IMG/VR virus record: IMGVR_UViG_3300016474_000048
Coordinates: 1-25,779 of that record
Strand: one strand, 5' to 3'
Length of the DNA stretch: 25,779 bases
Origin: a virus
Taxonomy: Duplodnaviria; Caudoviricetes
Shown here: piece by piece, positions 5,723 to 24,542 of the stretch
Numbering within the stretch: the first letter of the stretch is position 1
How the letters are laid out: the number at the start of each line of letters is the position of its first letter
Notes under the pieces: model-generated
What the model saw: the letters and a program-made list of their open reading frames with translations, nothing else
What the model was told of the DNA's origin: nothing
The model's database searches: none
Program-made: the position numbers and the translations under genes

Positions 5723-5917
5723 TCACCACTTGCAGGACGGCTTGCTCACCGCACCACCCGTGGCCCGCCGCTGCGGCAGCCCCTTGGTTCCACGCATTCT
5801 ATCCGCCTTCTCGAAGTCCCGTCCAACGGATTGCGGGATCCCCGCCTTCTTCGCGAAGGCGGGGTCGTGCGCGACAGCCCGCATCAGGCGGGCCTGAGCC
5901 TTGGACCGGCTCGGCAT
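5723..5917 (-). CDS. Small basic phage protein, 64 aa (MPSRSKAQARLMRAVAH...)
   Basis: TGATG overlap with the upstream stop at 5917. Contains RATGGAV. Confidence 0.8.
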   Translation of the reverse strand: MPSRSKAQARLMRAVAHDPAFAKKAGIPQSVGRDFEKADRMRGTKGLPQRRATGGAVSKPSCKW

Positions 5918-6393
5918 CAGCACTTCCCGCCGCCGTACATCGGCTTCCCGCGATGCGACGGGACGCCGCCCCGGGCGAGCTTGGTCATCGGCTTGCCGGG
6001 GTGCATGGCAGCCTCATGCTTGTGGACGGCCCGCTTCACGAGCGCCTTGTCCTGCGCGAGGTCGGCCTTGCCGCCGTCCTTCATGCCGCCGGGGATCCGC
6101 GCCCGCGCCATCAGGTCAGGCATCCCCTTCGGCTTGCGACCGCCGGAGGGAGCAGCCGCCCGGGGTGGCTTCGCGGCGGCTGGCATCGGCGGCATGGGAG
6201 CCGGAGCGGGCGGCGGCGTGTAGCCGATGCCGTCCATGCTCTTCGCCGCGCTCAGGCCGCCCTTGGCCGCCTTCTTGACCCGGCCGCCGCCAGCGTAGAA
6301 CTGGACGAGCTTGCGGCCTTCGGGAGCGGAGCTGTCCTTGAAGCCGAAGTCGCTCGGGAACTTGAACTCGCCGTAGCGAAGCGTCTTGCCCAT
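5917..6393 (-). CDS. Basic, low-complexity protein with multiple xxxGG motifs, 158 aa
   Basis: ATG at 6393. Contains YAGGGRV, AAKGGL, MKDGGKA, LARGGV, MYGGGKC and a central Pro-rich tract. Confidence 0.8.
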   Translation of the reverse strand: MGKTLRYGEFKFPSDFGFKDSSAPEGRKLVQFYAGGGRVKKAAKGGLSAAKSMDGIGYTPPPAPAPMPPMPAAAKPPRAAAPSGGRKPKGMPDLMARARIPGGMKDGGKADLAQDKALVKRAVHKHEAAMHPGKPMTKLARGGVPSHRGKPMYGGGKC

Positions 6394-6395
6394 CG

Positions 6396-6551
6396 TTACC
6401 ACCCCTTCTTCATCGCCGAATAGGCGGATTTCGAGATCGTGGACTTGCTCTTCGGCCTGCTGTCGCCTTGGAGCTTCTGGATGTTGATGTTACGCACGAG
6501 CGACGGCTTCTGCGCCTTGAGCGCGCGGAGCTTCTCTGCCTTGGTCTTCAT
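6396..6551 (-). CDS. Small basic protein, 51 aa (MKTKAEKLRALKAQKPSLVRNINIQKLQGDSRPKSKSTISKSAYSAMKKGW)
   Basis: Manual translation, below the ORF-track cut-off. Fills the gap between neighbours with 1-2 nt spacing and has GC3-rich codons. Confidence 0.75.
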   Translation of the reverse strand: MKTKAEKLRALKAQKPSLVRNINIQKLQGDSRPKSKSTISKSAYSAMKKGW

Positions 6552-8001: not shown

Positions 8002-8916
8002 TCAGAGACCGGCGGTGCCGTAGAGGCAGCGCGGATCCGTCCAGCCCACGTCGTAGCGCTCGGTGGCCTTGTAGCGCATGGAGTCGGTCTCGAAGTCGCC
8101 CTCCATGCTCTTCTCCATCGAGCGGCGCTTGAGAACCTTCAGGCCCTCGGGCGCATCGGTGTTGATCCACCACGCCGTGGTGGAGGTGATGCGCGAGAGG
8201 TTCTTCTGGCCCTCGGACAGCAGCCCCATCGAATTGACGGGGTTGATGTCGTTGTTCGCCGTGCCCGTGCGGAGGACGCTCTTGAGGAGCACTTCCGCCT
8301 GAAACACGTTCGAGGGAGAGACGACGAGCGACTTCGGCTGGAGCCGGATGCGCTTGCCGTTGTTGTCCACCGCATTGCGGATCTGGATGAGCATCTGCTC
8401 CAGCGAGGTCTGCGACAGGTTCGCTGCCGTGGAGAGCTGGTTGGAGAAGGTGCCGCTCGTGATCGGATGCGAGGTGTTGATCAGCGACACGCCGTCGCCG
8501 CCGACGTAGCTGCCGTTGAAGGCGCGGTTCAGGATGTTCGCGCAGACCGTCTCCTTCGTCTCGATCAGCGACTGCGCGAGGTGCTTCGCGTAGGTCTGGC
8601 CGATGCGGATGTGGTCACCGTCCTCGACGAGCACCTTGGTCAGTGCGAAGGCGAGGCCGTAGACCTTGTAGACGTAGCGCTTGATGAACAGCACGCCACC
8701 CGACTGGTAGGTGACCGCCGTGCCATCCGGCAGCTCCGGCGCAGCGCCGAAGCCGTAGAGCACCGGCTCCTCGTGGTACTGGCGCGGGGTGCCATTGCCC
8801 TCCTTGAACACGCCCTTCCACTCGTCGGCGCGCTGATCGTACACGCCGTCGAAGGACTGCGAGATGATCGGCTCGACGATGGAGCGGAAGTCGGTTGCCC
8901 TCATGGGGACTGCCAT
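8002..8916 (-). CDS. Major capsid protein, 304 aa
   Basis: AAGGAG RBS. Motifs GFGAAPELPDG.AVTY, GGDGVSL..TSHP, PKSLVV.P, EGDFETDSMRYKATERYDVGWTDPR typical of this HK97-fold MCP family. Synteny after the scaffold. Confidence 0.92.
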   Translation of the reverse strand: MAVPMRATDFRSIVEPIISQSFDGVYDQRADEWKGVFKEGNGTPRQYHEEPVLYGFGAAPELPDGTAVTYQSGGVLFIKRYVYKVYGLAFALTKVLVEDGDHIRIGQTYAKHLAQSLIETKETVCANILNRAFNGSYVGGDGVSLINTSHPITSGTFSNQLSTAANLSQTSLEQMLIQIRNAVDNNGKRIRLQPKSLVVSPSNVFQAEVLLKSVLRTGTANNDINPVNSMGLLSEGQKNLSRITSTTAWWINTDAPEGLKVLKRRSMEKSMEGDFETDSMRYKATERYDVGWTDPRCLYGTAGL

Positions 8917-12178: not shown

Positions 12179-14644
12179 TCACGGTGATGGGTTGATGCCG
12201 GTGCCGGTCGAAACCGCCACCCTTTCTCCGCTGACGATCTCCAGAGCTGCGAGGTCGCGTGCGGTCTGGTTGTCGGCATCGTTCATGCCGACGCGCGCAT
12301 CGACCTCGAAGGTCGAGCGCTGGTTCTCCTGATCCTGCTTGAACTGCTCGGCCTGCATCTTGGCCGCGCGGTCCTTCTCGCGGTCGGCGATGCGCGCCGC
12401 GTCAAGCTGCGCCTTCGCCTGATCGGCCTGCGCCTTGCGCGCAGTCTCGGCCTGCGAAGCCTGCGCCGCGAGGATGGTCGGATCCTGCGGCATCTGCGGC
12501 TGCATCGACTGGATGTACTGCATCGCCTGCGCGATGATCGGAGGAAGACCCGCGAGAGCCTGCTGGCCTTCGGCGATGACGCGCGACGACGCGGTCGCGA
12601 GCAGGATGTCCATCTCGCGCGACACGTCGTCGTCCTTGTCCATCAGCTCCGAGATGTCGGTGCCGGTTGCCGTACTGGTAACCTCGAAGACATGGCTCGC
12701 ATACCAGAGCGTGACGTGATCCTTGATGTGTTCGAGGATCGCCGGGACGAAGCGCGGAGCGATGATCGGGCTGCCGCCGAAGACCGGCGACTGCATGAAG
12801 TCGAGATGCACCTGTATGTGCGCGAGGTGCTCCTGCTCGGGGAACGCGACCACCGGCCGCCCCATCGTCGCGGCGACGTTCTCGTTCACCGCGTTCATCT
12901 TCTTCGGCTCCTGCTTGTCCAGCAGGAGCTTCTCGCTCTCGGGGATCTTCAGCCGACGCAGCAGCAGCTCCTCGACCTTGCGGATATCGTAGAGCTGCGG
13001 CAGCGCCGCCGCGCGCGCGACCACGGCTTGGATCTGCGCGAAGCGCTGCGTCTCGGAGAAGATGTTCGGATCGGAGACCGGGATCACGTCCACCGGCCCC
13101 TCGTAGTCGGCGCGCCGCACGATCAGCTCGCCGTCCTCCTCCACCAGCACCTTCTCGTCGAGGTACATGCGGTTGAGGCGATGCAGCACTTCGAGCGTGC
13201 GCTGCATGGCGACGTGCAGGCGCGAGTGGATCGCGGAGAACACCGTCATGCCCTGCTCGATCAGGGCGAGCGTGGTGCCGACCGGCATGTTCGGGTTCGC
13301 GCCGTCCGACAGGTTCTCGAACGTCGTCCGCACGACGCCGCGACCCGACTCAAGCAGGAAGCCGAGCAGCTTGAACAGCACCTCGCTCGGCGGGTTGAAC
13401 GGGACCGGCATGGCGAGCTTGCGAACGTCGTCCACGTTCAGGCCGCCCTCGATCTCCGTCACGCCAGTCGCGGTGAGGTTCAGCGACTGGCCGCCAGCCG
13501 TGCCGCCCTTCAGCTTCAGCAGCGTCGGGAAGTTCTGGATGTGGGCGCTGTCGAGCAGCGCGCGCAGCGCGCCGGTAGCGGCACCGGAGAGGCCGCCGAT
13601 CATGTGCGGCAGCCCGATGGGGTATGCCCCGCGCCACGGGACGAACGGCCACTCGACGATGTGCGTCAGCTCCTCGCGCAGCTCGTCTTCCTCGTCCCAG
13701 TTGCGATACACCGACAGGACATCCTCGGTCGCCTTGTCGATGGTGATGATGTACGGGCACGGCGCGCCGTCGTCGTTGTCCTCGATGTCGAGGTGCGCGT
13801 AGATCTCGAAGATCGTGCGAAGCCCGTCGCTGTTGTAGGGATCCGCCTCGCGGCCCTCGATCTTGTCGTTCGCCTTCTGCGACTTCGACTCCTCGGGCAG
13901 CGGCGGGTCGGGCGGGAGATCCACGTCGCGATACATGCCCGCGCGCACGCGGCTCTCGTACTCCTGCCGCGTGATGTACTGGACGTGCGTCTTGCGCTCG
14001 GCCGAGTAGAAGCTCGTCGCGGCGAAGGGGATGTACACGTCGTCGATGGGGACGAAGAGCGTTGTCGGGCGCTTGCGCCGCTTGTCCCAGAACAGCTTCA
14101 GGTACTGGCCGCCGCCCAGCGGGAGCTGCGTCAGGAGCTGCTCCAGCTCCGGCCGAAACTCCTTCATGGAGACCGTGAGCTGGCGGTTCATGTGCTTGGT
14201 CTTGCGCTGCGCCTTGTCGAGCTTCTCCTGCGTGACCTCGCCGGGGATGAAGTCCTTCACCGGCCCGGTCGGCGGGAACAGCTCCTTCATCGCGCGCGCG
14301 GCGAAGTCCACGCAGGCCTCGGTCAGCATCGGATGCACGACGCGGCTCGCGCCCTCGAACTGCGCGCCGCCGGGCGCATCGTCGCCCAGCCCCGTGCGCC
14401 GCAGGCCCTCCTCGTACTGCTCGTCGCGCTTCTTGCGCGCCTGCTTGTCGCGCTCGACGTGCTCCAGCAGCGACGTGGCGGCCTCTCGCAGGACCGTGGG
14501 ATCGAGCACCTCGACGAGGTTGTCGTAGAACTCCCCCTCGCCCTCTCCCGGGCCGTCGTCGAGCGTGACGATTGCGCCGCCGTCGTCCGTGTCGCGGATC
14601 TCGGCGTCGTCTTCGATCTCGAAGCTCTCGTCCTGTTCGGCCAT
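12179..14644 (-). CDS. Portal protein, 821 aa
   Basis: FEGASRVVHPMLTEACVDF.ARA..ELFP..GPVK, PVGTTLALIEQG..VFSAIH.RLH, VIPVSDPNIFS, C-terminal Gln/Ala-rich coiled coil (P22-like barrel). Position after terL. Confidence 0.9.
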   Translation of the reverse strand: MAEQDESFEIEDDAEIRDTDDGGAIVTLDDGPGEGEGEFYDNLVEVLDPTVLREAATSLLEHVERDKQARKKRDEQYEEGLRRTGLGDDAPGGAQFEGASRVVHPMLTEACVDFAARAMKELFPPTGPVKDFIPGEVTQEKLDKAQRKTKHMNRQLTVSMKEFRPELEQLLTQLPLGGGQYLKLFWDKRRKRPTTLFVPIDDVYIPFAATSFYSAERKTHVQYITRQEYESRVRAGMYRDVDLPPDPPLPEESKSQKANDKIEGREADPYNSDGLRTIFEIYAHLDIEDNDDGAPCPYIITIDKATEDVLSVYRNWDEEDELREELTHIVEWPFVPWRGAYPIGLPHMIGGLSGAATGALRALLDSAHIQNFPTLLKLKGGTAGGQSLNLTATGVTEIEGGLNVDDVRKLAMPVPFNPPSEVLFKLLGFLLESGRGVVRTTFENLSDGANPNMPVGTTLALIEQGMTVFSAIHSRLHVAMQRTLEVLHRLNRMYLDEKVLVEEDGELIVRRADYEGPVDVIPVSDPNIFSETQRFAQIQAVVARAAALPQLYDIRKVEELLLRRLKIPESEKLLLDKQEPKKMNAVNENVAATMGRPVVAFPEQEHLAHIQVHLDFMQSPVFGGSPIIAPRFVPAILEHIKDHVTLWYASHVFEVTSTATGTDISELMDKDDDVSREMDILLATASSRVIAEGQQALAGLPPIIAQAMQYIQSMQPQMPQDPTILAAQASQAETARKAQADQAKAQLDAARIADREKDRAAKMQAEQFKQDQENQRSTFEVDARVGMNDADNQTARDLAALEIVSGERVAVSTGTGINPSP

Positions 14645-14697: not shown

Positions 14698-17600
14698 TCA
14701 GGAGATCTGGCCCGCGTCCACGGCGGCCTCGGCGGCGTTTCCAAGCCCCGCCGCTGCCGCTGCCGCTGCCGCTGCCGCGTCTGCCTCGGGATCGCCAGTG
14801 CCCGGTCCAGAGGCACCGCCACGAGACTGGCTTGTCCCCGCGATGGCGTTATCCACAAAGGAATCGTTGAGAGACGTGCCGAACAAGCCGAAGCTGAGAT
14901 TGTTTCCGATGCCGGACATCACTTGCGATGCGGTCAGGCCGGGGAAGGCGTAGCCGGGGTTCGCCGCCCGCGCCGCATCGAGAGCTGCGTCGTACTCGCG
15001 CGCTTCGAGCGCGGTTCCAAGAGCCGTGCCTGCGAGGCCGAGGCCGGGGATCCCGGTGAACATGGATCCGAGCTGCCCCATGACGCCGAGCGCTCGTCCC
15101 GCGCTCATGCCGGGGACGGAGACGCTGCGCGTGTCCACGGTGGCTTGACCCGCTCCTCCCGGCGTCCCGGCGCTGCCCGGCGTGAAGCTCGACAGGCCAG
15201 AGGCGATGGCGGTGTCGGCCTGCTGCTGCGGCGTAGGCCACGAGTACTCCATCGCCGGAGACGACGCGCGCCAGCCATCGCTCATCGCCTGCGGCCTCAT
15301 GCCGTAAGTCAGCATGTCGTCGCTCACCGCGCCGCCCTCGGCGTAGCGGTTCACGATCTCGATGGGCGCGTCGTCGAACATGACGATGTTGCGGGTGCCA
15401 GTTCCAGCGGCACGAGATCCTGCATCGAGGTAGCGAATGCCGGGAACGCCTGCCTCGCGGAGGACATTCGTCGCTTTGATCCTGCCGGGCTTTGTAGCCC
15501 AGTTGGAATTGGGGTTGTCGGAAAGTTTCTTTGCAAGCTCAAAATACTCATCCAACCCAGTCGGCGTCCTGATCGGCATCTCCAGCCGACTTGAATCTCT
15601 CCAGATCGCATCCTTGAGGTAGTGGTCGAACACCTGTCGTGCCTCTTGCGGCTGCTCTGTCCACCACCCGTCTTCGGTTATGAACTTCTCTTTTGGAACG
15701 TGAAGATTGACATCGTACATGTAGGCCTTCGGCTCGATCAGATCACCGCCGCTCCAGTCGATCTTGAACTGCTTGTTCTTCAGCGCATCGATTGAATACC
15801 GGATGTCGCGCAGCCAGTCTTCGCTCGCGTCTGGGCGAGCGTACAGGCTGTCGTCGAGCGCACGGATTGCGGCAGCCTCGTCTCCGCCGTAGCTCTTGAG
15901 TGCGTTCTCTATGAATTGAGCCTGCCGTTCGGTCGCGCCAGACGGCAGCGAAATACGCATGACCGTCGGTGTAAACTGCGGCTCCGCCATCTCTTCAAAC
16001 GACCTCTTGTAGCTCTTCGCCACGTCTGGGTTCTCCGCGAAGTACAGCCCGTGACCGTAGACCTGAGCGCCTTCGCCGGTCCCGATCTTGCCCATGTCGA
16101 ACTCGTCGAACTTGTGCGGCGAGCCGTGATAGGCGCGCAGCGGTGACTGGACACGCACGAGCGAACCGCGTCGGAAGCGCGCGAGGCCGCCCTCATCGAC
16201 TTCGCCGCCATCGGCGTAGCCCCAGCGCTGCCTGACGACATCGTCGAACGACTTCAGGATCTCGTCCGTCGCGCCCGGCGTCGTGAAGGGCTTGCCGTCC
16301 ACGGTCCAGAGCGTCGTGTTCGGATCGAACTGCGTCCAGACCTTGCCGCGTCCGACGCGATCCAGAAGGCGTTCCGTCAGGATCGGCGAGAGGTTGTTCG
16401 CAAGCACGAGCTGGTTCGCGCGTGTCTCGAACGCGGGATCGGCGAGCTGCGCGCGCCGGAAGAAGTCGGGGTCGTTCGCCAGATCCCAGTTGATCTGCTG
16501 CTTCAAGCCGAAGCGATGCGCCGACTTCGCGAGGTCCGGCCGCGTGAAGATGAGCGAGCGCGACGAAGTGTCGGGGAACGTCCCCTCGATCCCGTGCAAG
16601 TTCGCGTGGTCGCCGATGTCGCGGCCGATGAACGACGACATGTCGAAGTCTGGGTTCGACGGGATCGCGGCCGTGTTCGGGTGCGTGTGCATCGTGACGC
16701 CGAAGCCGTGCGGGCCGGGGGCGTGATACGGATCGACATGCAGCGCGGACGGGTGCTGGAGCATCGTGCCAGCGTTGGGGCGCGGCTTGATCAGGTCGAT
16801 CTCGTGCGGGCCGCCGGACAACACGTTGCTCGCGAACACCGGGACGTTGCGCGGGTCGCTCGCGACGGAGAGCGCGACCGGATCGGGCGCGGAGAAGAAG
16901 CCGTGCTCGATGTTCTTGTTGATCGTGTCCTGCGCCGCGCTCGACCATGTGTGCTTCGTGCCGGGGATCGAGTAGTCGATGGCGTCGAACACCTCGTTGA
17001 TGTCGCTCGGCAGCGGGACGTTCCTGATGTCCCGCTCGGTGGACGCGCGTTCGAGGCTCTCCGCGACCTTCTTCGCCTCCTGACGCGAGAGCTGCCCACC
17101 GGGGCGGACCTTGCCGCCGCGCTGGTATCCCTCCATGCCGAACGAGGCGTAGATCTTCGCCATCACGCTCTCGGGCGCGGTGTTGGGATTGATCACGATC
17201 CCCGCGTCCTCCGGCTGGTCCGCGATCTCCTGATCGCGCATGAGCGCGTTCTCGTCTTGCAGCTCGCGCATCATGCGCTGGAGCGCGGCGTCGTCGGCCT
17301 CGACCTCGCCGCCATCGGCGTACCTGAAGTCGCTCTTGCTTCCGTATGTCACGTCGCGGCCGACGACCAGAGGACCGACTTGCACGACCTCTTCAGCGCG
17401 CGTGACCGGCTGCATCGTGGTGCGGTCGTAGAAGTAGCCGTGGCGCTCTGGGTCCATCCCGATCTGCTTCCAGCGCGACGGCTCTTCGAGGGCCTGCTTC
17501 ATGCGCGCGAGCGCCTCTTCGTCGCTCATCGGGTTCCACTCACCGCGCATGACCGCGAACGGAGACTTCGCTCCACCGGCGGCAACATCCAGCGCCTTGC

Positions 17601-18036
17601 CCTCTGGCACGATCATGGCGACGTTGTTCGCGGAAGACGTGGACGAGTACGCGGTCGGCTGCTTTGTCTGCGGACGATGCACGGAGTTCACCCACGCGCC
17701 GCTGCCGGTGTACGCAGGGATGTCGAGCCGCAGCTCGGTGCGCTCGCCAGCCGGGATGTTGGCGGTCGCTCCGTACTGAGCGCGCTTCGGCTCTGACAGG
17801 GCGGCCAGCGCGTCCTCGCGCGATGTCGGCATGGGCGCGCTCGCGTAAGGCTCGACCGGCTTGTAGGCACTGACGAGCGCGTCGTACTCCTCGCGCGTCA
17901 GCGTGCCGTCGCGCAGCTTCTGGGCCGCGTTCGTGAGCTGCGGCACGCGCTCCGTCACGTCCTTGTGCGACATGCCGAGGCGAGATCCTGCCTGCGAGAG
18001 CGGGCCGCTCGTGCGGCGAAGGGAGCGCTGGGACAT
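14698..18036 (-). CDS. Multidomain (polyvalent) protein, 1112 aa: unknown domain, JAB/JAMM domain, ART-like domain, Gly/Ala-rich membrane-like tail
   Basis: Start reassigned to MSQRSL at 18036. Contains HTHPNTAAIPSNPD (HxHx7SxxD) and YHGSPHKFDEF...GHGLYFAE. Linkers YADGGEV, YQRGGKV, YADGGEV, YAEGGAV. Confidence 0.85.
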   Translation of the reverse strand: MSQRSLRRTSGPLSQAGSRLGMSHKDVTERVPQLTNAAQKLRDGTLTREEYDALVSAYKPVEPYASAPMPTSREDALAALSEPKRAQYGATANIPAGERTELRLDIPAYTGSGAWVNSVHRPQTKQPTAYSSTSSANNVAMIVPEGKALDVAAGGAKSPFAVMRGEWNPMSDEEALARMKQALEEPSRWKQIGMDPERHGYFYDRTTMQPVTRAEEVVQVGPLVVGRDVTYGSKSDFRYADGGEVEADDAALQRMMRELQDENALMRDQEIADQPEDAGIVINPNTAPESVMAKIYASFGMEGYQRGGKVRPGGQLSRQEAKKVAESLERASTERDIRNVPLPSDINEVFDAIDYSIPGTKHTWSSAAQDTINKNIEHGFFSAPDPVALSVASDPRNVPVFASNVLSGGPHEIDLIKPRPNAGTMLQHPSALHVDPYHAPGPHGFGVTMHTHPNTAAIPSNPDFDMSSFIGRDIGDHANLHGIEGTFPDTSSRSLIFTRPDLAKSAHRFGLKQQINWDLANDPDFFRRAQLADPAFETRANQLVLANNLSPILTERLLDRVGRGKVWTQFDPNTTLWTVDGKPFTTPGATDEILKSFDDVVRQRWGYADGGEVDEGGLARFRRGSLVRVQSPLRAYHGSPHKFDEFDMGKIGTGEGAQVYGHGLYFAENPDVAKSYKRSFEEMAEPQFTPTVMRISLPSGATERQAQFIENALKSYGGDEAAAIRALDDSLYARPDASEDWLRDIRYSIDALKNKQFKIDWSGGDLIEPKAYMYDVNLHVPKEKFITEDGWWTEQPQEARQVFDHYLKDAIWRDSSRLEMPIRTPTGLDEYFELAKKLSDNPNSNWATKPGRIKATNVLREAGVPGIRYLDAGSRAAGTGTRNIVMFDDAPIEIVNRYAEGGAVSDDMLTYGMRPQAMSDGWRASSPAMEYSWPTPQQQADTAIASGLSSFTPGSAGTPGGAGQATVDTRSVSVPGMSAGRALGVMGQLGSMFTGIPGLGLAGTALGTALEAREYDAALDAARAANPGYAFPGLTASQVMSGIGNNLSFGLFGTSLNDSFVDNAIAGTSQSRGGASGPGTGDPEADAAAAAAAAAAGLGNAAEAAVDAGQIS
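14750..14778. repeat. Hexamer microsatellite (GCCGCT)x4.8 encoding poly-Ala
   Basis: Directly visible; encodes the 10-Ala run near the C-terminus of the 1112-aa protein. Confidence 0.9.
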
Positions 18037-18043
18037 GTCGATC

Positions 18044-19492
18044 TCACGCTGCGTATGGGTTGAGCTTCGGCTTCGGCGGCGGCGCTGCCTCTTCGGGGCG
18101 GCGCTTGAAGCCGGTGGCGGACAGGAGGTTGCGGTCGGCGAACAGACGCCACGCCTGCGTCGTCGCATCGACGAAGTCGTCGTGCTTCGTCGAGCCTTCG
18201 CCAGTGAACACGCAGAGCTGGGCGAGCAGCGGCTCGGCCCATGTGCGCGGCGCGCCCGAGATCTTCTGGCTCTCAGGCAGCCACACGAGGCCGTTCGCCG
18301 GTAGGTGCGAGACCGCGTGCAGGCGCGAGAGCTTGTCCGCGTTCCCCGGGTTGTAGGCGTGCGCCAGCACGCCCTCGCGCTCCAACATCTGCCGCAGCGA
18401 GATGCCGCTGCCCTTGTCCTCGATCAGCAGCAGATCGACCTTCTTGCCGCTGTTGCGGACGAGCGCCGGTCCGAACAGCGGCTTGATCATCGGCACGTCC
18501 ACCTCGCCGTACTCGACCTCCAGCTCCTTCCGCACGCGCGTGATCAGGTCCGGCATCGAGAGCCAGTCCTGCCAGCAGTCGAGCAGCATCACGCTCGGCC
18601 GCTTCTCGTGCTCGAACACACCCCACACGGTGCAGGCTGTCGGGTCGCCCTCGCCGGTCTTCTTGTCGCGCGTGCGCTCGGTGAACGCGGTGTCGAGCGA
18701 CATCAGAACGAACGAGAGTTTCGGCAGCGGCTTGTTCGCGGGCCACAAGCGGAACCACGTCCGCTTGATGATGCCGCTCTCCTCTGGATCGATCAGCTCG
18801 CCGTAGATCTCCTGCCGCCCGAGCTGCGTGCCCTCGTACTTCACGAGCTGGTCGAAGAACGTCGGCGCGAGGTTCGCCTTGTTCTCGTAGGTGGTGCCGC
18901 GCGTGATCACGCAGCGCTTGTCCTTCACCAGATCCTGCACGAGCGGGATCGGTCGCGGCGTCGTCGTGAAGCACACGCGCGGGCGCTGGCCGAGGCGCAG
19001 GCCCATCATCAGCATGTCCCACGTCTCCTGCGCGCGCTGCCACGCGGCCAGCTCGTCGCACCACGCGCGATGGCACTGCGGGCCGCGCAGTCGGTCGGGC
19101 TTCTCCGCCGAGAACGCGCGGATCGTCGCGTCGTTGTAGAGCGTCAGGATCAGGTCCGAGCGGTTGTAGTCCTTCACCAGCTCGTGCGGGACGGTCGCGA
19201 GCAGTCCCGCCGGACCCTCGAAGCAGACGTGCTGCGCGTCGCTCCACGTCGGCGCGACGACGTGGCTGATGCTCTTCGGATCCGCGAGCGCTTCGCTCGC
19301 GACCCAGTTCGCGCCGCTGAAGGTCTTGCCGAAGCCGCGCCCCGCCATGATGCCCCAGATGAGCCAGTCGCCCGGCGGCTCGGTCTGGTTCGCGCGCGCA
19401 CGCTCTAGGAACGCGAGCCGCCAGCGCACGACGCGGAGCTGCTCGACCGAGAGCTTCTCCAGCACCTTCGGGTCGAGATCACCGAGCGGCAC
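18044..19492 (-). CDS. terL: Terminase large subunit, 482 aa
   Basis: Walker A AGRGFGKT, LRGPQ, Walker B AWCDE, coupling motif TTTP, nuclease SLDTA...IEDKGSG...HDDFVDA. Confidence 0.96.
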   Translation of the reverse strand: MPLGDLDPKVLEKLSVEQLRVVRWRLAFLERARANQTEPPGDWLIWGIMAGRGFGKTFSGANWVASEALADPKSISHVVAPTWSDAQHVCFEGPAGLLATVPHELVKDYNRSDLILTLYNDATIRAFSAEKPDRLRGPQCHRAWCDELAAWQRAQETWDMLMMGLRLGQRPRVCFTTTPRPIPLVQDLVKDKRCVITRGTTYENKANLAPTFFDQLVKYEGTQLGRQEIYGELIDPEESGIIKRTWFRLWPANKPLPKLSFVLMSLDTAFTERTRDKKTGEGDPTACTVWGVFEHEKRPSVMLLDCWQDWLSMPDLITRVRKELEVEYGEVDVPMIKPLFGPALVRNSGKKVDLLLIEDKGSGISLRQMLEREGVLAHAYNPGNADKLSRLHAVSHLPANGLVWLPESQKISGAPRTWAEPLLAQLCVFTGEGSTKHDDFVDATTQAWRLFADRNLLSATGFKRRPEEAAPPPKPKLNPYAA

Positions 19493-22400
19493 GGCTCTTC
19501 ATCTGCCTGAGCGCGCCGCGCGCCCTGCCTCCGCGTTTGAACGTCGGGGTGTCGCTCATCACGGCGTAGGGCATCCCGGTGTAGCGCTCCATCTCGATGT
19601 CGAACGGAGAGCGCTCGCGCGGATAGCCGAGCTGCACGCCGCCTTGGTTCGCCATCGGATCGAGGTCGCCGTAGTGGCCCGCGCTCGGCGGGATCACCAC
19701 GTCGAAGCCCTGCGGCATCGGCAGGGGCTGCGGGATCGACTGCGCCGCAGCCGACGCGACCTCGCCGCTCTCGGGCACCGGCATCGGAGCCGCTGGCTCC
19801 TGACGCGCAGGCGCAGTTGCGGGCGCAGCGGGGCGGCGCGCCGGTTCGTCCTTGAGCTGCGTGCCGTACTTCTTGCCGCGCCACCAGAACGTCTGCTCGC
19901 CGCCCGAGAGCGCACGCTGGCGCGCGAGGCGGAAGGCGCGGCCGAACGACATGTTGCTGTAGTTGGCAAGCTCGACGGGTCCGCCGTCGGCCTTCTTCAC
20001 CTCGTCCTTCGGCTCCGCCTTCTTCTTCGACTTCTCGGTCGAGGCCCACTCCGGCATCAGGCCGAGCTTCTGGTCCGCGTAGATCGTGTCCGCGCCGCTG
20101 GCCTTCGCGTTATGCTCCGCGTTCGGCCCGAAGTTCAGGTAGCTGTTCTGGCCGCGAAGCTCGACGGCGGCAGCGGGCCGCGCGTCGGGCGAGTACATCG
20201 GCGCATGGTTCAGCCACGCGCGCTCTTCGCCCTTGTGGCGGAAGAACGGGTTGCCCGGGCCGAAGTGACCGAAGGCATCATGCACGACGCGGAAGGCATC
20301 GTTCACGACTGCGTTGTCCTTGTCGCCGAGCCTGCCGATGGGCGTCAGCAGCGGATGCTTGAACGTCGAGAGCAGCTCGGCGTTCGCGTCCGTCGTGCCG
20401 AAGCCGAAGTCGGTCGGATAGGTGTAGAGCCGGTTGTTCTCGACGATGTCGGCGTAGCCCAGCGCGGGCGAGCGCGCGTAGGGATCCTCCATGCCCGGCT
20501 TCAGGAAGCGAATGTCGAGACCGCTGTCCTTGATCTTGTCGAGCTGCGCCATCGTCTCGTCTGCGAGCGCCTGATACGAGCGCTGCACGCGCGGATCGCC
20601 GGGATCGTGCTTCATCTCGTCGTATGCGCGAGAGAGCCTGCGCGCGAGTTCTTCGTCGAACTCTGGATACTCGCGGATGACGTGCTCGCCCGGGCGACCG
20701 ACCGACTGCATGTAGCGCGCAGCGGCGTCTTCGAGTTCTGGGATCGGCAGCGTCTCGACGCGACCGATGGTCGGGATCTCGACCGTCGCAGGCTTGCCGG
20801 GCACGCTCTTGTATCCCGTTCCCTCGCCGACGCGGCGCGGCCTGCCACGCCCCATCATCACGAGCGCGCCCGTGCGCGGATTGACGGGACCGCCGTCAGC
20901 GAAGCCATCGATCTTCTTCGGGCCGTCGAGTACCTCGTATGGCAGATCGCCGCTCGCGCGCGTCTTTTCGCTGGTGAAGCGCGCGGGCTGGTCTACGTCT
21001 CCGCCAGAAGCGTAGCCAACCATTCCACCATGAGACTTGGTGATGTCGTTGCTCTTGGGATTGAATTCACCGCTATTCCCGATGGCGGACTTCAACTGAC
21101 TTGGATTAAAAACAATTGTCTCAAGTCCTTCGCCGGTTTCCGGGTTAAACTTTACGTCAGAATAATCGTTGATATGGAAAATTCCATCATATCCAGCATC
21201 TTTCATCTTCTTCACATCATCAGGATGCAAAGTCATCGGCCAGTCATAGGACTTGGCACCAAACTCCTTCCTTAGCTCTTCCTTGCCCTCTTTGTCGCTA
21301 TTAGTAACGTAAAGAGGGTTTTCGATCTTCACATAGAGGGGCATGACATTTGCCCCTTCCCTGAATTCCCCCCTTCGCATGACATTGTGTGCCGCTGGCT
21401 GGCTATGCTTGTGCGGTGTCAGCCAGATGGCAGGGCCGGAAAGGCTCGGGTCATGGCCCCCCGGAATGAACTCGGAGAAGTGCTTTGAGGTCACATGGTA
21501 ATGCACCCACGGCTTGCCCTCTCCGTCGATTGCCCTGCTGTTGCCGAACCAGTTTCGGAAGTTCTCAGGCGAGGCAGCCTCGCGTGTCATCGGCGGAGCT
21601 TTCCCCGCGTCTGTCTTGCCCGCAATCCGAGCCGCGAAGCGCAGGAGCGCACCCGTGCGAGGGTTGACGGGACCACCATCGGCATATCCATCGACCATGC
21701 CGCCGTCCGCGTGTCCCGTCATTGCCTCCATGCCGGTGCCGAGCGCGGTGCCGAAGCCCGTGCCCATCAAGACGTTCCTGCCGAACTCCGGCCTGATTAC
21801 CGGCAAGAAGAACTCGGCCGCCGCGTTGCCAACTGCCCCCGCGCCGCTTGCTGCTGCGCGGACCGCGTCAGCCGCCCTGCCCTGACCAAGTGCGTCGTTC
21901 GCCGCCTGCTTGAGCGCTCCGATGCGAGGGCCAGCGAAGCGCACGCCATCGGAGACGCGCTTGGCAACGCCGAGAGGCAACATCGGCACCTGTCCGATCA
22001 TCGTGCCCAGAGCAGCGCCCGCGTGCTCGATGGGGCCGCTCGGCGGCTTGATGCCCATCTCGCTGTTGATCGCCGCGCGCAGCTTCTCCATGTGCTCGTT
22101 CGCATCGTTCGCGAACTGCGGCACGAACGCTTCGCCGCCGGGGATCATCCCGACCAGCGTCGGCGTCGATGCCACGTCGTAGAGGATCCCCGGCGTCTTG
22201 CCAGCGTTCCACCACACGACCGGGTTGCCGTCGTCGTCGAACGCGGAGTACTGCGCGCGCATCCCGGCCGCAGCCTGATCGAGGAAGCGCCGCGCCGCGC
22301 TGCCGCCCTGCTCCCGGCGTCGTGCGATGTCGCGGTCGTACTGCGCGCGATCAGAGGCGATGCGTTCATCGGCCTCGCGCTTGAAGCGCTCGCTGTCCTT

Positions 22401-24542
22401 CTCGACCTTGCCGCCGTCGTCGTAGCGCATCGCGTTCATGAGATCCTCGTGCGTCGTCGTCGTTCCGCTCGTCGCATCCCACACGCCGTGATGCGTGAGG
22501 TGCTGGTACATCGGATCGAAGCGCGACGGCATCGACACGCCGAGCACGCGCTGGCGCTCGTTCAGGCGATGCACGGCCTCGTCTCCACCAGTGACCGGCA
22601 GGCTCTCTCCACGCGAGAAGTACTTGCTGCTCGTGTCGTCGGGCGTGTGCAGCTTGAGCTGGCGCGCGTCGAGCGTCGCGTTGTCGCCGCGCCCGAGCAT
22701 CGACGACATGAAGCCGCTCTTCGCCGCGTCGATGTTCTTCACGCGCTTCATGAAGTCGCGCCACTCCTGCGGATCGCTCATGCCGTAGGACGAGCGCGCG
22801 ACGAGGTCGGAGATCTCGCCCGCAGCGTCGGGCATGTAGCGCGCGCCGTAGGCGAGCTGCTCGCCGAGCTTGTTGTAGTTGCCGAACGGCTTCATGACGC
22901 GCACGGCGTCCTCGATGGCGTAGCGGTCCTGCAATCCGCGCACGGCCGCGTCGAGGTAGCGCTGGCCCATCGGCGTGACGAGCCAGTCGGCGAACGCGCC
23001 CTCGGGGCGGATCTTCCGATCAGGGCTGGAGAGCGGCAGCCCGAGGTCTTCGAGCTTCTTGCGGTTGATCGCCTGCCGCTGCATCGACGACACGGTGATG
23101 CCATACGCCTTCGCGACATCGCGCGGCGAGAGGCCCTCGGTGTCGGCGCGCTTCGCCTGATCGATCATGAAGTCGCCGAACGGCACGACGTGCTGCGGCA
23201 GCTCGAACTCGCCTCTCGCGTTCTGCGGAAGCGCGCCCGGCTGCGCGAGATCCTCGCGCACGTCTTCGAGCGGACGCCACTTCCAGTCGTCGATCTTGTT
23301 CGACGGCGGGTCGGCGTATGCGTTGCGCTTCACGTTGCCGCCGCGCTTGAAGCGCTTGAGCACGTCGTTCACGTCGCCGACCTTCTTCGTCGCGTCGATG
23401 TAGTCGCCGAGCTGGTCGATGGCTTGCTGGTCGAGGACGCGCTGCGGGATCTTTTCGCTGATCGCGGACGACATGCCGAAGGAGCGGTGATCCGTCCCCG
23501 TTGGCTTCTTTTGCGCGCGCCGTTCCTGATACCACGGCTCGAACAGCAGCGACCTCGGGATCGGAACCTCGAAGCCGCCGTAGTACGGATCCCTGCGCGT
23601 TGGCGGCACGCCCTTCGCGATCTCGTGCGAGTAGTCGGGATGCGGCAGCTTCGTCTCGCTCGTCTCGCGCAGCGGCTTCCTAGGATCGATGCCGATCAGG
23701 AGCTGGCCGCCGTACATCTCGTTCGGCATCGCGAGCGGACGCAGCAGCGGATCGGAGAGCGCGTAGCGCGCCTCGGCGATGTTGGGGAAGCCAGCGTCGT
23801 AGTACGACACCATGTCCATGTGCTTGTACAAGCCGTCGCGATTGCCCGGCCGCTTCATCCACTCGTCGAGCGCTGCCTTGTCCTTGAAGCCCGGGAAGCT
23901 GGCCCACTCGGCCTCGCCCTTCGGGTTCTTCGCCTTCCGCAAGTTCTCCTCGAACTTCCGCAGCTCGTCGGCGCTGATCGTCGAGCGCGCCATCATGTCG
24001 TCCACGAGGCCGCGCATCATCGTCGTGCGGTCAACGGACTTCGGGTTCATCGTCATGAACACGCCGGTCACCGGCTTGCCGGTCTTGTTCATGATGTTGA
24101 GCGCGCCCGTGCGGATGCCCTCGGCCTGCGCCATCGCGTTCGCCCACGCGCCGTGGTTCGCGCCGAGCGGATAGTCGAACCCGCCGTCGAGGCGCAGCAG
24201 GCTCGCTGGCTGTTCGCCTGCGAGCGCCTTGAGCGTGCCGACCGCGCTCGTGTCGCCGACGAGCGGGATCGCGACGGTGTTCTGGATCTTGCCGAGGTCA
24301 CCGGTCGTCAGCGTCTTCCTCGGCTTGAACTCATCGCCGCGCTCGACGACGTTGCGCCCCGGGGTGCGCGTGCGCTCGAACTCATCCTCGGAGATCACGC
24401 GGTTCGACCACGGCAGATCGCGATTGCCGGTGCGCTCGTTCTGCTGGAGCTTGTCTTCGAGTTCGCGCTGGATCGTGCCCGGCGGAAACTGCGGCTGCTG
24501 CGACGGCGCGCGGCTTCCGATCTTCAGTCCACGACCCGCCAT
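19479..24542 (-). CDS. Giant multidomain (polyvalent) protein, 1687 aa: unknown domain, HhH-GPD-like, hydrophobic module, ART-PolyVal-like, HDxxGH domain, short C-terminal motif
   Basis: AAGGAG upstream of the ATG. NFRNWFGNS...GKP..HYH.T...YDGI...ETIVFNPSQLKSAIGNSGEF is ART-PolyVal-like. Nine xxxGG linker motifs. Confidence 0.88.
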   Translation of the reverse strand: MAGRGLKIGSRAPSQQPQFPPGTIQRELEDKLQQNERTGNRDLPWSNRVISEDEFERTRTPGRNVVERGDEFKPRKTLTTGDLGKIQNTVAIPLVGDTSAVGTLKALAGEQPASLLRLDGGFDYPLGANHGAWANAMAQAEGIRTGALNIMNKTGKPVTGVFMTMNPKSVDRTTMMRGLVDDMMARSTISADELRKFEENLRKAKNPKGEAEWASFPGFKDKAALDEWMKRPGNRDGLYKHMDMVSYYDAGFPNIAEARYALSDPLLRPLAMPNEMYGGQLLIGIDPRKPLRETSETKLPHPDYSHEIAKGVPPTRRDPYYGGFEVPIPRSLLFEPWYQERRAQKKPTGTDHRSFGMSSAISEKIPQRVLDQQAIDQLGDYIDATKKVGDVNDVLKRFKRGGNVKRNAYADPPSNKIDDWKWRPLEDVREDLAQPGALPQNARGEFELPQHVVPFGDFMIDQAKRADTEGLSPRDVAKAYGITVSSMQRQAINRKKLEDLGLPLSSPDRKIRPEGAFADWLVTPMGQRYLDAAVRGLQDRYAIEDAVRVMKPFGNYNKLGEQLAYGARYMPDAAGEISDLVARSSYGMSDPQEWRDFMKRVKNIDAAKSGFMSSMLGRGDNATLDARQLKLHTPDDTSSKYFSRGESLPVTGGDEAVHRLNERQRVLGVSMPSRFDPMYQHLTHHGVWDATSGTTTTHEDLMNAMRYDDGGKVEKDSERFKREADERIASDRAQYDRDIARRREQGGSAARRFLDQAAAGMRAQYSAFDDDGNPVVWWNAGKTPGILYDVASTPTLVGMIPGGEAFVPQFANDANEHMEKLRAAINSEMGIKPPSGPIEHAGAALGTMIGQVPMLPLGVAKRVSDGVRFAGPRIGALKQAANDALGQGRAADAVRAAASGAGAVGNAAAEFFLPVIRPEFGRNVLMGTGFGTALGTGMEAMTGHADGGMVDGYADGGPVNPRTGALLRFAARIAGKTDAGKAPPMTREAASPENFRNWFGNSRAIDGEGKPWVHYHVTSKHFSEFIPGGHDPSLSGPAIWLTPHKHSQPAAHNVMRRGEFREGANVMPLYVKIENPLYVTNSDKEGKEELRKEFGAKSYDWPMTLHPDDVKKMKDAGYDGIFHINDYSDVKFNPETGEGLETIVFNPSQLKSAIGNSGEFNPKSNDITKSHGGMVGYASGGDVDQPARFTSEKTRASGDLPYEVLDGPKKIDGFADGGPVNPRTGALVMMGRGRPRRVGEGTGYKSVPGKPATVEIPTIGRVETLPIPELEDAAARYMQSVGRPGEHVIREYPEFDEELARRLSRAYDEMKHDPGDPRVQRSYQALADETMAQLDKIKDSGLDIRFLKPGMEDPYARSPALGYADIVENNRLYTYPTDFGFGTTDANAELLSTFKHPLLTPIGRLGDKDNAVVNDAFRVVHDAFGHFGPGNPFFRHKGEERAWLNHAPMYSPDARPAAAVELRGQNSYLNFGPNAEHNAKASGADTIYADQKLGLMPEWASTEKSKKKAEPKDEVKKADGGPVELANYSNMSFGRAFRLARQRALSGGEQTFWWRGKKYGTQLKDEPARRPAAPATAPARQEPAAPMPVPESGEVASAAAQSIPQPLPMPQGFDVVIPPSAGHYGDLDPMANQGGVQLGYPRERSPFDIEMERYTGMPYAVMSDTPTFKRGGRARGALRQMKSRAAR
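20862..21692 (-). repeat. Pair of 48-nt diverged direct repeats (20862-20909 and 21645-21692) encoding DG[YF]ADGGPVNPRTGAL
   Basis: 15/16 aa identical; 39/48 nt identical, with mismatches almost all at third codon positions. Confidence 0.9.

Follow-up and report, generated by a model that had tools for sequence, protein, structure and literature searches.

A predicted JAB/JAMM metallopeptidase module as exchangeable cargo of GG-segmented phage polyproteins

Background

Animal viruses deploy deubiquitinases against ubiquitin and ISG15 immunity. Our literature search found no tested phage counterpart of these enzymes, the only related statement being speculation on siphophage tail proteins in the accessible part of one preprint (bioRxiv 2023.09.04.556158), which also describes the bacterial Bil system as acting late in infection on the tail tips of siphophages. 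In the consulted portions of the respective papers, characterised JAB domains are peptidases with a zinc/Glu/Ser chemistry (PMC3239186), the Tox-JAB1 and DUF4329 groups are proposed to be nucleases (PMC3482391), and the C-terminal slot of MuF toxins often holds nucleases (PMC5576092). Phage polyvalent proteins, as portrayed in part of Iyer et al. 2017 (PMC5512222), are large multi-domain late-gene products with ART-PolyVal domains and swappable enzyme modules, and are probably virion-borne.

Here we analyse a 25.8-kb virus record (positions 1 to 25,779; "the window" below) encoding two proteins, A and B, that share several of these properties: each chain holds several unrelated enzyme domains, is mosaic between relatives and is encoded among virion genes. 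One module of protein A carries a JAB/JAMM-type zinc-site motif, and we consider this module, with a probability of roughly 0.5, to be an accessory injected metallopeptidase (as predicted) aimed at a host protein. An injected effector fits this genomic context.

Genomic setting and module architecture

The terminase, portal and capsid genes all lie on the minus strand and the source phage is podovirus-like. Large ORFs encoding A and B flank the terminase gene, with four and eight GG motifs, respectively, and one ART-PolyVal domain in each protein (Pfam). The main features are:

8002–8916, minus strand: major capsid protein (context gene)
12179–14644, minus strand: portal (context gene), with 57% identity to a Caulobacter phage RW protein and 32–36% to those of HTVC023P and CRP-901
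14698–18036, minus strand: GG-segmented polyprotein A, 1112 aa, between terminase and portal
14701–15330, minus strand: C-terminal Gly/Ala-rich module of A, common to the JAB-less orthologues L004 and L007
15325–15345, minus strand: GG linker YAEGGAV, from the sequence
15331–16203, minus strand: ART-PolyVal module of A (Pfam PF18760, E 7.6e-8), with a hypervariable middle
16198–16218, minus strand: GG linker YADGGEV following the JAB module (YADGG, 16218–16204)
16219–17112, minus strand: JAB/JAMM (MPN+) module, with a predicted helical lobe ahead of the last core strand
17107–17127, minus strand: GG linker YQRGGKV preceding the JAB module (YQRGG, 17127–17113)
17302–17322, minus strand: GG linker YADGGEV, a swap point between the upstream module and a paralogous JAB in near-identical phages
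17308–18036, minus strand: N-terminal module of A
18044–19492, minus strand: terminase large subunit (context gene)
19479–24542, minus strand: GG-segmented polyprotein B, 1687 aa, with eight linkers
19980–20888, minus strand: HDxxxH...GEE metallopeptidase-like module of B, by sequence motif

The earlier note had placed the JAB module between two GG linkers, and YQRGG and YADGG are indeed found at its borders. A GG pattern that was fitted to this same window occurs in four and eight copies, against means of 0.04 and 0.08 in the shuffled control. Proteins A and B contain no cysteine in 2799 residues, the portal, terminase and capsid protein containing 2, 8 and 2, respectively; the homologues P0009–P0011 are also cysteine-free. 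Among the 24 runs listed for positions 16000–18000, 18 contain at least half of the words of this stretch, and these runs are mostly of freshwater, estuary or aquatic origin. Contigs from one RNA run span the JAB module and were not taken as a sign of expression.

Variation is also seen at other modules. Within the ART-PolyVal module, positions 15457–16028 hold other sequence in at least three of the four runs compared while the module ends are constant, which marks this part as a hypervariable insert. In P0008 (residues 960–1172) and P0011, the ART slot is occupied by a module with a GHEGRHR-type motif and no Pfam match, which also forms the first modules of L020 and L021 and which we take to resemble ParB/Srx.

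Motif conservation and sequence relatives

The motif itself was confirmed as an exact match: HTHPNTAAIPSNPD (16689–16648, minus strand) fits HxH-x7-S-x2-D, and its HxH, S and D form part of a set of residues (E, H, T, H, P, S and D) that is invariant in 7/7 aligned homologues with pairwise identities of 21–51%. The zinc-site motif arose by chance in 43 of 20,000 shuffles of protein A. The residues concerned are:

16648–16689, minus strand: predicted HxH-x7-S-x2-D zinc-site motif, from sequence and conservation
16723–16812 (approximate limits), minus strand: lineage-specific insertion of ~30 residues, containing the GPHEIDL Glu
16906–16908, minus strand: conserved Glu at the catalytic position (IEHGFF), invariant in 7/7 homologues

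The candidate catalytic Glu originally put forward, that of GPHEIDL (16801–16803), has to be abandoned in favour of the last of these, as it lies inside the lineage-only insertion and corresponds to Ser in P0008. The E-to-H spacing is 73 residues in the window versus 40–51 in other lineages. A 32-residue deletion in P0007 also removes the GPHEIDL Glu; its cluster mate P0014 does not have the deletion, which was therefore given no weight.

The homologue family is small, with nine proteins among 3244 and 7995 longer candidates and six clusters in a HMMER search of 1.84 billion representatives. A word index returned no same-length homologue among 1193 candidates, whereas the HMMER search did give two solo proteins; single-sequence searches of the PDB, PHROGs and GenBank phages gave nothing useful. 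Prok-JAB (PF14464) matched the motif region alone at 11.7–18.4 bits, below the 25-bit cut-off.

Predicted fold and the nucleic-acid alternative

AlphaFold2 modelling of the window module with three sequences was unusable (pLDDT 34.5), and fold evidence comes from the homologue P0010, 32–33% identical to the window module, modelled with seven sequences at pLDDT 81.1 and pTM 0.84. When this model was compared with 48,161 chains (VIA), rows 1–24 were all MPN/JAB proteins, where we take 8tyy to be BilC and the Npl4, eIF3f and Prp8 rows to be MPN. The best match was Sst2 (Z 6.0, rmsd 4.3, 141 aligned), with RadC (rmsd 3.9, 110 aligned) and BilC at 4.5, Cap3 at 4.1 and BubC at 4.0; a second fold comparison gave a top Z of 6.4. 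Together with residue conservation, these matches uphold the proposed JAB/MPN assignment, although the Z-scores of the model are middling, and what carries the assignment is their agreement with one another plus the motif. For P0010, Foldseek placed BRCC36- and CSN5-containing entries in its first four PDB rows, none of its PDB matches reaching E ≤ 0.001, and 12 of 14 weak profile matches in the PDB were AMSH-type JAMMs (E 0.27–0.59). The fold alignments stop at model residue 239–241, past helices at 167–232 (DSSP), from which we infer a helical lobe of ~70 residues inserted ahead of the last core strand; AMSH presumably carries its specificity insertion at about the same place.

Among predicted viral structures, the top match to P0010 is unnamed (E 6e-4); next come uncharacterised proteins and minor capsid proteins that match over most of the model. 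The latter include C-terminally extended minor capsid proteins (209–242 columns, TM 0.34–0.39, E 0.011–0.042), which are probably of the MuF type. The top Atlas clusters are unnamed and mostly viral (0.90–0.92), the nearest named ones being Tox-JAB1 and DUF4329 (0.86, lead level). Other Foldseek rows, at E about 0.1, are Acidianus two-tailed virus ORF273 and ASFV F317L. Weak whole-length matches (BFVD, PDB) comprise the same ORF273, a structural protein, together with EsV-1-200 and other giant-virus proteins; judging from these models, they may form a wider viral clade combining JAB and lobe.

These comparisons bear on the best-placed alternative: an injected effector with nucleic acid or nucleotides as its substrate, along the lines suggested for RadC and Tox-JAB-1/2. 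We regard this as possible, with a distinctly minor share of the probability. The named Atlas neighbours belong to groups with proposed nuclease function, the extended minor capsid proteins would be counterparts of toxins that often end in a nuclease, and RadC and deaminases come after the JAMMs in the fold ranking. The modelled fold does not tell peptidase from nuclease clades, because the highest Z is 6.4 and RadC reaches 4.5. A peptidase is preferred since characterised JABs and the closest solved structures are peptidases, while the modules are near neutral (pI 5.8–6.7) and no HhH domain was seen in the module by Pfam; moreover, for RadC-type JABs the consulted parts of PMC3482391 and PMC3239186 offer the nuclease role as a proposal made from context. 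These arguments for an injected metallopeptidase over a nuclease are soft.

Distribution of the JAB module relative to the GG motif

The earlier note had suggested that the module might process the xxGG linkers in cis or in trans, and that its presence should then be compared with that of the GG motif across related phages. Twelve relatives were available as whole records (eight IMG/VR contigs of 85–100% estimated completeness and four GenBank phages). By the GG pattern, ten of these have ORFs with the motif on the strand of the capsid gene, and CRP-901 and HTVC023P have none. No JAB was detected in any of the ten with PF14464, the family profile, a divergent-form profile or loose patterns, the near-identical G023 being recovered as a positive control for the PF14464 search. 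The expected co-occurrence was thus not seen. The JAB-less records include G001, with a cysteine-free 1513-aa protein holding four motifs, and MW202545.1, whose proteins hold four and seven; most of the other eight have one to three motifs per protein. Closer to the window, the partial loci L004 and L007 (86% and 82% terminase identity, within a range of 80–86%) encode orthologues in which the linkers and the C-terminal module are kept and the JAB is absent. The GG motif of this phage clade is not dependent on JAB.

Several weak matches were dropped during these searches: a 75-aa frame of G007 against PF14464 (E 0.004), a W01 portal helix against A3 (E 0.018), an opposite-strand ORF of G017, a 98-aa ORF of G002, and an HTHP-S-D occurrence in a 1776-aa ORF of L118, an unrelated protein. 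JAB-like modules with ~23 residues inserted between HxH and PSxGD were observed within GG polyproteins of L020 (8469–9437) and L021 (5054–5914), at about 50% terminase identity. The family profile misses these modules, and hhalign gives them a weak link to the JAB family (probability 36%, E 0.0004). A more distant JAB could escape detection; the loose patterns that catch L020 and L021 give nothing credible in the 12 records.

A role as linker protease, whether in cis or trans and whether dedicated or an optional local one, accordingly appears improbable. It would agree with the cleavage of ubiquitin-like proteins by JAMMs after the C-terminal Gly (PMC3239186, in part), with the GG motifs that adjoin every polyprotein copy of the JAB, and with the divergent modules of L020 and L021, which indicate that the domain recurs in this setting and that profiles can miss distant forms. 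The 0/10 result and the linker-bearing, JAB-less orthologues speak against it, as do the duplicated paralogues and the 21–51% identity among homologues, which, set against a constant linker, are a misfit to a fixed substrate, and the occurrence of the module as a swapped unit or alone with one C-terminal GG tag. Complex prediction for the window module with zinc and a 36-residue linker peptide scored 0.05 versus a mark of 0.32, in a run whose controls did not fold, and was given no weight.

The accompanying remark that the window has no other obvious maturation protease needs qualification in view of the metallopeptidase-like module of protein B (19980–20888). This HDAFGH...GEERAW module is similar to the HEXXXH clade of zincins in polyvalent proteins, with Asp in place of Glu; it is nearly invariant in L001, L004–L006 and L120, and a distant copy occurs in a GG-tagged solo gene of G003. 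It was set aside as a candidate linker protease, its profile being unmatched in G001 and MW202545.1.

Module exchange and the GG motif as an end tag

In P0001, P0007 and L120, a paralogous JAB takes the place of the first module of A, and contigs from two of the four runs compared switch at position 17314, within the GG linker. Two JAB paralogues occur in one protein in P0001, P0007 and P0008, the last combining both with a different downstream module, and P0009–P0011 have other JAB copies in other slots. P0012 and P0013 are solo JAB genes (275 and 293 aa) with one GG motif each, and they stop 10–11 residues past its first position; for P0012 the searches gave no genomic context, three matches spanning 32–36 query residues being discarded as chance. 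A solo ART-like gene in L004 has the same GG ending. When the window and the 12 records were counted together, 16 of 40 ORFs with the motif had its final copy no more than 35 residues from the stop, versus 5.3 expected, in a count of stop-to-stop ORFs that may contain a few false frames. Caulobacter phage RW, a relative available in culture, carries the motif in a single ORF of 584 aa and showed no JAB in these searches.

The JAB module thus behaves like cargo. On our reading of the sequences, the polyproteins would be head-to-tail fusions of tagged cargo genes, and the repeated linker DNA would also serve as exchange points, since L001 and L120 lack the ART module of protein B that lies between two similar linkers. 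An end tag of this kind in solo genes makes packaging versus cutting testable with a tagged reporter.

Related motifs were observed elsewhere. An NPRTGAL- or RLAGAL-like motif follows some GG linkers (window 21686 and 20903) and also opens solo genes (L004 4329–5099; L007), which suggests a putative second, N-terminal tag. Small basic late proteins encoded at 5917–6402 and 5723–5923 on the minus strand contain several GG motifs, and their counterpart in MW202545.1 is 452 aa long with seven; these are possible multivalent docking or scaffold proteins. In a distant group of larger phages (L022–L024, L027, L029, L030, L032–L034), a 430–450 aa ORF with one YAxGGQV is located upstream of the terminase. 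The ORFs of W01 (MK929790.1) ending at 34435 and of G003 ending at 40164 continue after the GG motif with a conserved G-P-G-T-G-R-S-D...L-S-D-G-E-Y-V, presumably resembling a motif found close to the C-terminal end of tape-measure proteins of siphophages, and this stretch could point to the origin of the tag.

Proposed function

As an accessory injected metallopeptidase, the module would be expressed late and its polyprotein loaded into the head through GG tags, each marking the C-terminal end of a cargo unit, before being ejected into the host with the phage DNA. A virion-borne cargo is favoured because the late-gene position and the ART-PolyVal neighbours match phage polyvalent proteins as described in part of PMC5512222, and ejection, indirectly, because A, B and P0009–P0011 have the cysteine-free signature of such cargo. 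In the host, zinc would be held by two His and Asp, with the Glu activating water and acting as proton shuttle and the Ser stabilising the intermediate of peptide hydrolysis, while the inserted helical lobe would select the target. The JAB block would then likely cleave a host protein, one candidate being a Gly-terminated conjugate made by a bacterial defence system of the ubiquitin-like type. The patchy occurrence of the module, its duplication and its rapid divergence agree with a variable target in the host.

Ubl-type defence conjugates (Bil, Bub, or CBASS Cap2/CD-NTase) are the leading named target because they are the sole bacterial JAMM substrates with a phage link that we found in the literature, and they account tentatively for about half of the weight of the metallopeptidase reading. 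No Ubl, E1 or E2 gene was found among the 18 proteins scanned in the window, which covers part of a genome; such genes need not accompany an enzyme directed against a host defence. The predicted helical lobe and the 23-residue insert within the motif of L020 and L021 may block a ubiquitin-type groove, and late action of Bil fits poorly with the early cargo of a podovirus-like phage. The more specific proposal of a phage-specific JAMM clade, loaded into the capsid through a C-terminal GG tag, injected, and stripping Ubl or CD-NTase conjugates in the first minutes of infection, is likewise a tentative one. If true, it would make the module a deconjugase that the virion brings in against ubiquitin-like immunity of bacteria, with divergence and duplication keeping pace with host variants. 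The solo versions are compact forms open to direct assay against Bil, Bub and CBASS.

A peptidase might instead act on non-linker assembly proteins of the phage itself, for instance stripping host Ubl from virion parts late and before packaging. The late operon would suit this role, and a similar anti-Bil function has been speculated for DUB domains of siphophage tail-assembly proteins (accessible part of bioRxiv 2023.09.04.556158). We consider it quite unlikely given its accessory distribution, a cysteine-free cargo signature that indicates ejection and the absence of a tail-assembly context. Least probable is a non-catalytic MPN-fold binder or decoy. Two lineages with large insertions close to the active site might suggest it, but all five catalytic positions are invariant and two near-identical copies differ by 11–12 synonymous versus 3 non-synonymous codon changes.

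Comparison with known systems

The injected metallopeptidase that we favour can be set beside several described families. JAMM/MPN+ peptidases (AMSH/Sst2, CSN5, BRCC36, Rpn11, PfJAMM1, BilC, Cap3 and BubC) share with the module the MPN fold (Z 4.0–6.4) and the full E/HxH/S/D set, from which it differs in its identity of 8–14%, its putative lobe and the lack of Ubl, E1 and E2 genes in the window. Tox-JAB domains, in the consulted part of PMC3482391, are conflict-system cargo with reported viral members and a signature of E, H[ST]H, S and D, the Tox-JAB-2 form of which is present in the module family. In contrast to them, the module has no match to PF15659 or PF14220 and spans about 270 aa rather than about 155, and RHS repeats and an immunity gene were not seen. 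RadC (PF04002) is similar in its JAB fold, whereas the module has no RadC Pfam match at E ≤ 10, lacks the HhH domain and has the motif HTHP-x6-S. The polymorphic MuF toxins that temperate phages carry (Jamet et al. 2017, PMC5576092, in part) resemble protein A in being head-associated carriers, encoded close to terminase and portal, of an enzyme domain that varies. Protein A differs in having no MuF domain and many tandem modules, and the corresponding fold matches are weak.

Our literature search found no description of the JAB family or the GG tag of this phage clade, although supplements of the polyvalent-protein, polymorphic-toxin and MuF papers may hold related sequences. The phage polyvalent proteins remain the nearest parallel. 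In the part of PMC5512222 considered here, their JAB belongs to the RadC clade and is listed as confined to conjugative-element polyvalent proteins, unlike the JAB of protein A, their processing is assigned to zincin MPTases, and the GG tag of A and B was not seen in their description. Set against that description, the exchangeable JAMM module would be a novel form of the cargo carried by phage polyvalent proteins.
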